Sequence record: AP012532
From: Stx2-converting phage Stx2a_F451
Strand: one strand, 5' to 3'
DNA: 64,000 nucleotides
Shown: in pieces, positions 12,001 through 15,000 of the stretch
Layout: every line of letters starts with the position of its first letter
Position numbering within the stretch: the stretch's first letter is position 1
Made by a program: the position numbers

Positions 12001-15000
12001 ATTTTGGTGATTTATTAACTCTACGAAGTATGATTCTGATATATAAGGAAATTTATTTTTGAAAATGTGGCTGATGAAGGTTATGCGGCAGGGATCATAA
12101 CTGCATGGTTTAGCGAGTTACATCAATAAATACAATTGGTTATGTTTTTTAGGTGGGCGAACGTGAGGCAAAGAAAACCCGGCGCTGAGGCCGGGCTAGA
12201 TTTTAAAGTATTTATCTTTTAGAGATGTAGATGTAAAACTTTTCGCCTTTGAAAATTTTTTGTCATCAGAAGGGCTTATGAACTCATCTTTTTTGTAGGG
12301 AACCGCTAATGCTGCATCACGTCTGCGAGGCAGCTTGCTTACTTCCTCGCGCTTTTTCATGATCAGTTATCCTTTAATAACCTATACAGTTTTGTAGGGG
12401 TACATCCTGAGGATATTGTTAAGTTCGTAGCACGCCTTTTCCGCCCATCATCGTATAAACGAAAACCAGTAGTAGACGAATTTTCTGCGTCAAAAACTAT
12501 AGACAGTATAGCGTCCCCAGACTTTTTTTGCCATTCGCATGTGCCGTTAGTTGGTTTCGTCATCTGTAGACGCCAGTCAAGAACGCCATCACTTATAGCT
12601 GAGAGATCGTTTAGTACATCTAGTACGGATTGATATCTTTCATTTGGATCTACATGAATGCATTTGTTCACTATTGTTATTAATTTTTTATGTATATGGG
12701 GAGGATACTCTTTTAATGGATAGCAGCCATTAATTATCGACTCTCTGAGTTGTTCAATCGTGCTAAATGCAGATCTTTCTCTTTCAAAATTATCATGTCC
12801 AACACACATTCTATATATGGTTAATCCTGCCTGATATATGTCATATGTGAAATTATAATCATTTGTTGATAAAGAAAAATATTCCGGTGGCACATGAAAA
12901 TGATATCCAAACTCAGGCGCAGCTCTCGATTCCTCATTGACTAACTGAGATAATCCAAAGTCAGATAGCATGGCCTCATTTCTGTTTGATATCATAATGT
13001 TATTAGGTTTTATATCAAAATGCATAAGACCTTTTGAGTGTATATGATAAAGTCCACTTAAAAATTGAATGGAATACCGTATTATCTCCCTGCTTGTAAG
13101 ATTATTTTTTTTCATTAATTGGTTTAGCGAACCATTATGATAAAATGGCATGGCTATATAGATATTGCTCTCACATTGAGCAGCATACTGAACTTGCACA
13201 ATATTTGGATGTGCATGTTTATAGAGAAGCCTTGCTTCATTAAAGTAGTCGTCGTGGTTAGTGTTTTCTTTTTTTTCTATTTCTTTAATCACCAAGTCAT
13301 GAGCTAGGTGTCTGTCATGAGCCAGATATACTTTTGAAAAACAACCCTGTTCTTCTAGATCACTAATCCATTCGAATTCTACATCAGCTCTTTTGTATGG
13401 AGTTAGCATCCCCTTACCTCCGCAGATAGTGCAGCCAAAACAGCTTCATTTGTTTCAGTTGTAAAACCAGAATTATCGATTCCATTTATATTGCGGTGTG
13501 ACTTCAATATTTCTTTATACTCGATCTCTGTTAGGTTCAATGATGATTTCATGCCAGATTTTCTAATAGTGTAATATTTTCTTACATCACTGCTTGAAAA
13601 TGCTTCTTGAATAACAGCTTCTATATAAAGGCGGTCAATGCTAAGATTATCAGAGTTTGATTCAGTAACGCGTATGGCAGCTAATTCAACATTATATAAA
13701 TTAAGAATGTCGAGGATGTTATTTCTCACATACTTTAATTTTTCTGGTGTGTCTAAGGTCGAAGGTATTTTAATAACATCAACACATTTGAGTGCAGACT
13801 CATTAGTGCAATATACAACAAAAGATGTAACTTTGGGCGCCGCTCTAACACCTAGTATTCTCATTTTTTATATCCTATTTTAGAATCAGGCCGCATCTCT
13901 GCGACCATCCATCATCCAAACGTCTCTTCACTCATCCGAAGAAGCAGCAATCCGGGTTAGCACGCACAAGCTCAAGCGCATCAGTCAGCGAAAGTTCAGT
14001 ACTGTACTGATGCCATTTCATATCCTTCCGCATCCAATAGATTTTCCATCTATCCAGAGAACGTATGTACTTGATTCTTGCTGATGGCAGGATGTTTGTT
14101 TCACCTGGATTGCCCTGCCACACGGGGCGCTGTTCGCCGATATCTATCGTTTGGTCATTGATGCTATAAACAATATCCAGTTCATTGCGGATATGTTCAG
14201 GCGGCCTTATGCTTTCAATGAATTGGTGAACTTCTTTTTTTACTGCTTGATATTCAAGGTCATTGAACGCCATCTATCCTCCTTACCCAAACGTCTCTTC
14301 AGGCCACTGGTTACCAGCTATGTGACGATGAAGTCACGAACTTTTCAGCCACTCCCTTGCCTCGATGTCATCCAGATGGCGAGATTGCTTCAGAATACCA
14401 GCTACATACTCCACCTTTGCTACTTGATGATAAGGCAACGTTATAGGCCTGTGATCCTGGTTAATGCTTGTAAATTGGTATTCTCCATCTCTGTCATAGC
14501 CAAGAACCTTAATCATGTTGTGTCCTTCAACGGTTCTGACAAACACCTCATCACCCGGGAATACTTTGGTGTTAGGCTCAATGAGTACATATTCTCCTGA
14601 TTTTATTCTGGGCCACATGCTGTCTCCTTTCACACGAAGACCAAAGGCATCTGGATCATCGCTATAAATTTTGAGCCACCCATCGCGCTCTTCGGTCATC
14701 TCGATGGCACCATCAACACCAAGAATTGCCTCACCAACCACGCGCACTAACCCTTTTTTTAATTTGCCAACAAATGAAAGAGTATCTTCATCATTCGCTC
14801 CATTTAACGAAGTGCCGTGCTGAAGCCAAACAACATCAACGTTTAGAAATTTCGCAAGCGCATTCATTTTTTCCTGACGCGGTAAAGACTCAGCATTAAA
14901 CCATTTGCTAACGCCTTTGGACGAAAGAGAAAGGGCACGGGCTATAGCCATTCCCCTACCATGTTCATCAAGACCAGCTTCTTTACAGGCTTGCGCTAGC

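Follow-up and report, generated by a model that had tools for sequence, protein, structure and literature searches.

Which of the genes that follow the cI repressor in the Stx2-converting phage Stx2a_F451 belong together, and what could they do as a group? We addressed this question in the full 64,000-nucleotide (nt) Stx2a_F451 stretch of sequence record AP012532, referred to below as the window. Between cI and a terminator, in the slot where lambda carries rexAB, four open reading frames (ORFs) run in the same direction as cI, and one of them encodes Stk, a Hanks-type (eukaryotic-like) protein kinase. We favor, with moderate confidence, the reading that this cargo consists of a DUF3024 module and a three-gene abortive-infection system, L0083-stk-L0081. 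The two would be independent modules inserted at the rexAB position, the second of them a horizontally mobile cassette. The features of the locus, in the order of transcription, are as follows.

15034..15076, minus strand: oR3 and the putative maintenance promoter pM, transferred from the 933W record AF125520 with an offset of +2259.
14334..15041, minus strand: cI repressor, 235 amino acids (aa), with Pfam HTH_3 and Peptidase_S24 domains; first gene of the maintenance transcript.
13932..14273, minus strand: L0084, a DUF3024 protein of 113 aa (Pfam PF11225, PADLOC PDC-S43).
13403..13864, minus strand: L0083, a RuvC-fold protein of 153 aa, putative pseudo-RuvC; first gene of the conserved cassette.
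12363..13409, minus strand: stk, a Hanks-type protein kinase of 348 aa with a C-terminal β-sheet domain of ~75 aa.
12196..12360, minus strand: L0081, a basic protein of 54 aa, annotated in AF125520; third gene of the cassette.
12176..12197, minus strand: intrinsic terminator (tM in 933W), from hairpin prediction and the 933W annotation.

The locus itself is not new, being the already known immunity-region operon of phage 933W. Window positions 11900-14400 are 100% identical to 933W over 2501 nt, and likewise to many Stx1 and Stx2 phages; the cI protein is also 100% identical to that of 933W. AF125520 annotates L0084, L0083, stk, L0081 and tM between cI and nutL/N, in ORF-for-ORF agreement with the window, and the offset between the two records was checked by cro (window 15120-15347 equals AF125520 12861-13088). 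RefSeq labels the four products, from L0084 to L0081, as 'DUF3024 domain-containing protein', 'RuvC-like Holliday junction resolvase', 'serine-threonine kinase' and 'hypothetical protein'. The original prediction, made from the sequence of the window, had correctly described four co-oriented ORFs after cI, with their sizes, coordinates and junctions: the 153-aa ORF overlaps the start of stk by 7 nt, and the 54-aa ORF begins 2 nt past the stk stop. It had also placed a hairpin terminator at the end of the 54-aa ORF, and we found one at 12197-12176 on the minus strand, with 8 pairs, 6 of them G-C, and a T-rich tail. It erred in calling the 54-aa ORF unlisted, since this is the L0081 of the 933W record. 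The whole block is present, within Stx prophages, in 223 of 5,426 complete E. coli genomes.

The evidence that L0083, stk and L0081 form a unit comes from other species. Two peptide patterns from L0083, searched for in a single genome of each species, gave 71 loci, which span at least seven phyla and come from Alpha-, Beta- and Gammaproteobacteria, Cyanobacteria, Bacteroidota, Firmicutes, Acidobacteria, Balneolota and Myxococcota. A Stk-like kinase begins at the L0083 stop or a few nt from it in 70 of these loci; the 71st contig, of 1,146 base pairs (bp), is too short for the comparison. The 70 neighboring kinases are 34-57% identical to Stk and, where complete, ~340-355 aa long. Among 68 L0083/kinase junctions, 54 are overlaps of 1-8 nt (8 nt in 36, 4 nt in 6 and 1 nt in 12), 12 are gaps of 1-9 nt and 2 are larger gaps. 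Pairwise identities within the L0083 family correlate with those within the kinase family (r = 0.88, 64 loci). The converse search, from the kinase in P. aeruginosa, A. baumannii and Elizabethkingia, led to a 152-155 aa L0083 homolog just upstream. An exhaustive L0083 profile search returned 424 clusters at 50% identity, all of them stand-alone proteins of ~150-165 aa with no kinase fusion among them; members of the family are also carried by ten plasmids, including Mesorhizobium and Bacillus megaplasmids.

The small third gene is conserved to the same degree. For the 66 loci in which the kinase is complete and the sequence extends far enough past it, we asked whether an ORF of 45-75 aa starts at -25 to +30 nt of the kinase stop, using the other ORFs of the same loci as controls. 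Such an ORF is present in all 66, versus 33 of 229 control ORFs (14%). The absence of the 54-aa ORF from close relatives had been named beforehand as a result that would speak against the module; an equivalent ORF is kept in these loci. As a separate observation, one P. aeruginosa integrative element (locus L090, positions 6001-7300) differs from these 66 loci in having no ORF of at least 35 aa, the size range searched in this element, at -25 to +60 nt of the kinase stop.

Phage genomes give the same picture. L0083 and Stk occur together in 37-39 phage records and never apart. The Bacillus SPbeta-like phage SPbetaL6 has the same gene order, with an L0083 homolog at 35% identity, a full-length Stk homolog at 39.5% identity, a 4-nt overlap between the two, and a 60-aa ORF followed by a terminator downstream. 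Hairpins with T-runs resembling tM lie 3' of the small ORF in the Klebsiella, Proteus and SPbetaL6 loci. The flanking genes share almost no homology from locus to locus. Among them are genes for integrases, restriction-modification methylases, ResIII helicases, FRG proteins and S24 repressors, along with capsid and portal genes; one locus adjoins Wadjet JetC/JetD, and another the LlaJI restriction system and ArdA. The cassette also occupies cargo (moron) sites of unrelated prophages and integrative elements, and many loci lie outside recognizable prophages or defense islands. We also looked for a conserved fourth gene upstream of L0083 and rejected it, as the co-oriented upstream ORFs present in 31 loci are mutually unrelated.

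L0083-stk-L0081 is one co-inherited, phylum-spanning unit with translational coupling. The four ORFs of the window are also more than chance reading frames, the 153-aa ORF, the kinase and the small ORF being kept as a set across phyla and the 113-aa ORF matching DUF3024 over its full length. The possibility that a structured RNA occupies the place of the small ORF was rejected, as the region has no Rfam match at E ≤ 0.1. Relative to the literature searched and to PADLOC, a phylum-spanning three-gene cassette that includes a pseudo-RuvC seems to be new. That literature ties the kinase to a RuvC-like neighbor in nothing beyond a gene table and does not treat L0083 or L0081 as partners of Stk.

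Stk has the intact motifs of a protein kinase. It matches Pfam PF00069 with 158.8 bits (cutoff 31.7), and its catalytic motifs, VIKE, HFDIKPNN and DFG, are present and nearly invariant across the family. The ~75-aa C-terminal β-sheet domain matched no known fold. Stk also matches the PADLOC profiles of PD-T4-6, the best with 1e-37. PD-T4-6 is defined as a single gene, and the neighbors here are obligate at the frequencies given above. These frequencies bear on the idea that Stk is a self-sufficient abortive-infection kinase, with L0083 and L0081 as passengers or as an antitoxin-like safety catch on kinase toxicity and with no phage sensing on their part. In its favor, the literature searched names Stk by itself as the exclusion factor, PADLOC places the kinase under the single-gene PD-T4-6, and a small, overlapping upstream partner is the usual antitoxin-toxin layout. 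However, passengers would not be retained at these frequencies (70 of 71 and 66 of 66 loci) in different phyla with every flank exchanged, the L0083 family has invariant residues, and partners acting as antitoxins would be functional components all the same. We consider a self-sufficient Stk unlikely.

The first gene after cI, L0084, is a different matter. Its product matches Pfam PF11225 over the full length (1.2e-30, 106.5 bits, cutoff 24.9) and PADLOC PDC-S43 (4e-41), a single-gene defense candidate; PDC entries are candidates only. DUF3024 is found in 142 phage records, compared with 37-39 for the kinase pair, and ~100 phages have it without the kinase, alone or before other cargo. In SH2026Stx1 and Salmonella SE1Spa, it is the first gene after a different repressor and is followed by other cargo; it stands alone in Rahnella and Yersinia ruckeri and is duplicated in Rouxiella. 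Conversely, DUF3024 is absent from 70 of the 71 scanned cassette loci, and in Klebsiella, Proteus mirabilis and E. coli JNE23-011 prophages, the cassette directly follows unrelated repressors with no DUF3024 gene between. Base composition separates the two as well. GC content is 0.348 in L0083, 0.354 in stk and 0.376 in L0081, compared with 0.444 in the 113-aa gene, 0.452 in cI and 0.499 in the window, and GC at third codon positions is 0.27-0.36 in the three cassette genes, 0.47 in the 113-aa gene and 0.40 in cI. The GC break falls exactly at the borders of the cassette.

L0084 is a separate cargo gene, or moron, and a stand-alone module. The original prediction had described an AT-rich segment of four genes whose coupled partners might belong to a kinase module. 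Both parts of this description hold for L0083, stk and L0081, on the grounds of base composition, constant co-occurrence, overlaps and correlated divergence; neither is supported for the 113-aa gene, given its GC content, its absence from nearly all cassette loci and its much wider distribution in phages. We therefore regard as highly improbable a single four-component system that includes DUF3024. That idea draws on the three settings in which DUF3024 lies directly 5' of the cassette, in 933W, Erwinia aphidicola and Proteus penneri (100%, 59% and 37% identity to L0084), but it conflicts with the cassettes that lack DUF3024, with the phages that have DUF3024 and lack the cassette, and with the difference in GC content. 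DUF3024 is not an obligate part of the cassette; a looser functional link between them is still conceivable.

Several further observations concern the DUF3024 family. A Rouxiella badensis prophage (locus L089, positions 3352-4342) carries two diverged tandem DUF3024 genes after an S24 repressor, 50% and 58% identical to L0084, with DUF333 genes interleaved. In Erwinia and Rahnella, DUF3024 adjoins DinI and DUF333 or YoaK genes at the prophage end. A single-sequence match in the PDB to AvrPto, a kinase-binding effector, had E = 0.07; it disappeared when a 36-sequence profile was used and was therefore treated as chance.

We next consider what the partners of Stk could be. L0083 (window 13403-13864; ST933Wp23 in RefSeq NC_000924) is called 'RuvC-like Holliday junction resolvase' or 'RuvC family protein' by RefSeq and PHROGs. 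The predicted model has the full RuvC, RNase H-like fold, at ~15% identity to RuvC, and the match to Pfam RuvC PF02075, with 14.2 bits, is below the gathering cutoff of 22.2. In the profile alignment to E. coli RuvC, R7 falls on the catalytic D7 and R65 on E66, and the two arginines are at the ends of strands 1 and 4 of the model, in agreement with the alignment. Positions were assigned by profile comparison and secondary-structure register, not by superposed coordinates, and E140 was aligned with D141 by eye. Of the RuvC carboxylates D7, E66, D138 and D141, only the last has a counterpart, E140. These features are family-wide. In 122 diverse members, R7 is present in 121, position 65 is Arg in 97 and Lys in 25, R47, R78, E82 and E87 are invariant, E68 is present in 120, and position 140 is Glu or Asp in all. 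Since two of the four metal-binding carboxylates are replaced by basic residues and the RuvC match is below the cutoff, L0083 is most likely a pseudo-nuclease. The label 'Holliday junction resolvase' is unsafe and probably an over-annotation by RefSeq and PHROGs, as judged from the protein sequences. Unlike RuvC resolvases, the L0083 family is near-neutral (median isoelectric point (pI) 6.5), is always encoded upstream of a kinase and has basic residues at catalytic positions.

These residues also speak against an arrangement in which L0083 is an active structure-specific nuclease and the killing effector, with Stk as the sensor that activates it by phosphorylation. The complete RuvC fold would suit such a role, as would E68, E82, E87 and E140, the last at the RuvC D141 position. 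But Arg at the D7 position (121 of 122) and Arg or Lys at the E66 position (122 of 122) are incompatible with canonical two-metal catalysis, the Pfam match is subthreshold, and what has been published for Stk is widespread phosphorylation of proteins. We judge this arrangement very unlikely.

L0081, the third member, contains 22% Lys, has a pI of 10.0 and belongs to PHROG 4063. Its basic character is general in the small-ORF family (median pI 10.1; pI above 9 in 91% of 45 proteins). Two motifs recur in the small proteins: an N-terminal K-[IV]-K-N-x4-[YLF]-[LV]-[TS]-R-[SA]-x-L, whose Arg is present in 42 of 45, and a C-terminal G-[YF]-[IFV]-x-[FLW], with the aromatic residue (Tyr or Phe) in 42 of 45. 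L0081 of 933W fits both (…LPRRRDAAL… and …DKYFKI), and the 60-aa ORF of SPbetaL6 has the C-terminal aromatic motif (GNGF) and lacks the conserved Arg. Speculatively, [TS]-R-[SA]-x-L could be read as a site of the substrate or pseudosubstrate type.

The genes appear to be expressed together with the repressor. They share a strand with cI, and no further minus-strand terminator was detected between cI and the hairpin at 12197-12176. PMC3564112, citing Tyler et al. 2004, gives the 933W kinase as co-transcribed with cI, and in the phi24B transcriptome, p22-p25 (stk, L0083, L0084 and cI) shift together (PMC10789677). Co-expression with cI, proposed from the arrangement of the genes, is supported by these sources. 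A consensus promoter scan of the region yielded promoter-like sites no more numerous than in a shuffled control, and an internal promoter dividing the two modules was dropped as a candidate.

The link between Stk and phage exclusion is likewise backed by publications. Papers that cite Friedman et al. 2011 describe that Stk aborts HK97 infection of a 933W lysogen and that it is little or not active in uninfected cells. In the same sources, the published phenotype is a kinase switched on by HK97 infection, with widespread phosphorylation of cell proteins; its tyrosine-kinase activity and its activation by HK97 are taken from these citing papers only. This phenotype weighs against a reading in which the cassette mainly regulates lysogeny or host physiology, for example by controlling prophage induction through phosphorylation, as the Pf kinase-kinase-phosphatase (KKP) module does. 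Expression from the repressor operon would fit a regulator, the Pf module shows that prophage kinases can regulate lysogeny (PMC11341870), and many loci are not in recognizable prophages or defense islands. However, an exclusion phenotype is published for 933W, and the cassette adjoins Wadjet and restriction-modification genes and is found where unrelated prophages and integrative elements carry morons. A mainly regulatory role therefore seems quite improbable.

We propose that L0083-stk-L0081 works as one abortive-infection system. Stk would be its catalytically active effector, silent in the lysogen and switched on during HK97 infection, when it would phosphorylate cell proteins and the infection would be aborted. 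The RuvC-fold pseudo-nuclease L0083 would serve as a sensor or regulatory subunit of Stk, and the ~55-aa basic L0081 as a small subunit with a regulatory or adaptor role, perhaps that of an inhibitor or pseudosubstrate. Together, the two would keep the kinase inactive, sense the trigger, or both, and translational coupling would supply all three proteins in fixed proportions. We infer both the need for L0083 and L0081 and which of them would sense and which would restrain.

Several points weigh against this proposal. The literature searched treats Stk as the sole actor, and the other kinase defenses, Stk2 and PD-T4-6, were reported as single genes. Co-occurrence is evidence of co-inheritance, not of mechanism, and if stk alone excludes HK97, the partners are modulators at most. 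The near-neutral charge of the L0083 family weakens a role in DNA sensing and argues against simple DNA binding, and the four invariant glutamates (E68, E82, E87 and E140) leave room for some catalysis by L0083. Finally, the small ORF of Erwinia aphidicola (locus L086, positions 5987-6130) encodes 47 aa with 70% identity to L0081 over the first 40 residues and lacks the C-terminal K-Y-F-K; it may be a decayed copy, or the motif may be dispensable.

A more specific version of the proposal is tentative, and we think it rather doubtful as it stands. L0083-Stk-L0081 would be a widespread but rare tripartite immune system, in which the dead RuvC acts as a decoy or sensor of phage recombination machinery or of DNA intermediates, the Erf-type protein of HK97 is the trigger, and the kinase is freed from a basic, pseudosubstrate-like subunit. 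On the HK97 gene map, erf, which encodes an Erf-type single-strand annealing protein, lies between genes 40 and 42; 933W-type phages have Bet/Exo/Gam in place of Erf, and their L0079 is 99% identical to HK97 gp45. Speculatively, the position of erf, the presence of Bet/Exo/Gam and the shared gp45 homolog would be consistent with a dead RuvC as the sensor of a recombinase or of the DNA it produces. Friedman et al. 2011 reportedly named HK97 gp41 as the activator of Stk, and the choice of Erf as the trigger draws in part on this.

We compared the locus with other systems. With the 933W operon cI-L0084-L0083-stk-L0081-tM, it is the same locus and shows no difference within it. PD-T4-6 of E. coli and Stk2 of Staphylococcus share with it the use of a Hanks-type kinase as an abortive-infection effector; unlike those systems, described as single genes, the kinase here is set apart by a conserved C-terminal domain of its own and by two obligate neighbors. 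L0083 and L0081 matched no PADLOC profile. The best PADLOC match of the Stk kinase domain is MAD6 of MADS (7e-50), but with NCBIfam NF047741 (MAD6) Stk scores 122 bits against an equivalog cutoff of 460, and the conserved MADS neighbors were not found at the loci. Membership in MADS was rejected for this low score; the three 'mad2' matches in the flanks probably represent restriction-modification methylases of the ordinary kind, because methylase families recur among the flanks. HipBST resembles the cassette in logic only, as a three-gene operon in which kinase toxicity is held by small co-encoded partners. Its kinase is of the HipA type, whereas Stk is Hanks-type (the Pfam matches of Stk are to the Pkinase clan only, with no HipA-family domain), and the gene order and partner folds differ. 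CapK/CapS and the VapKSC kinase operons were rejected as relatives, their kinases being unrelated GHKL kinases.

The likeness to lambda RexAB lies in the slot between cI and the terminator, PRM-driven expression in the lysogen, the abortive-infection outcome and the sequence flanking the terminator. The proteins are not similar: a Pfam scan of all four found no Rex families, so that position and terminator flank are all that is common with lambda RexAB in sequence terms. RexA and RexB act by membrane depolarization, whereas the mechanism here would be kinase-based. At window 12150-12195, ~46 nt at and immediately beyond the terminator recur in hundreds of cassette-free E. coli genomes, and two of these matches are annotated as the rexB end, presumably in lambda-type prophages. 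This flank marks the right-hand boundary of a slot in which cargo is exchanged, in keeping with the predicted equivalence to the rexAB position.

Elsewhere in the window, the phage departs from 933W. To the right of cII, at 15948-19741, the O/P replication genes of 933W are absent and their place is taken by a 258-aa HTH_36 protein and an intein-bearing primase-helicase; the phage therefore combines 933W immunity with a different replication module. The primase-helicase (16835-19741, plus strand; 968 aa; Toprim_2 and AAA_25) is split by an intein with Hint and LAGLIDADG homing-endonuclease domains. By its Pfam matches, the intein covers approximately residues 379-634; it starts at Cys and appears to end in HNT. 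On the other side of the cassette, L0079 (10795-11265, minus strand; 156 aa, no Pfam family) lies in a second AT-rich patch with a GC content of 0.35-0.38, and in both this phage and HK97, where it is Gp45, the gene lies at the same place just downstream of N in the leftward operon.

Stk of 933W, a textbook case of a kinase by which a prophage stops the infection of a rival phage, has been treated as a single protein. If it works only in company with a pseudo-RuvC and a basic protein of 55 aa, sensing of the trigger may fall to one of these partners and not to the kinase itself. This would change how the Stk system is reconstituted and how it is annotated by defense-finding tools, since PADLOC has a profile for neither partner, and it would add a further case in which a nuclease fold has lost catalysis and become a subunit of an immune system. 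With the block carried by 223 of 5,426 complete E. coli genomes, such a system may shape which phages can superinfect enterohemorrhagic E. coli.

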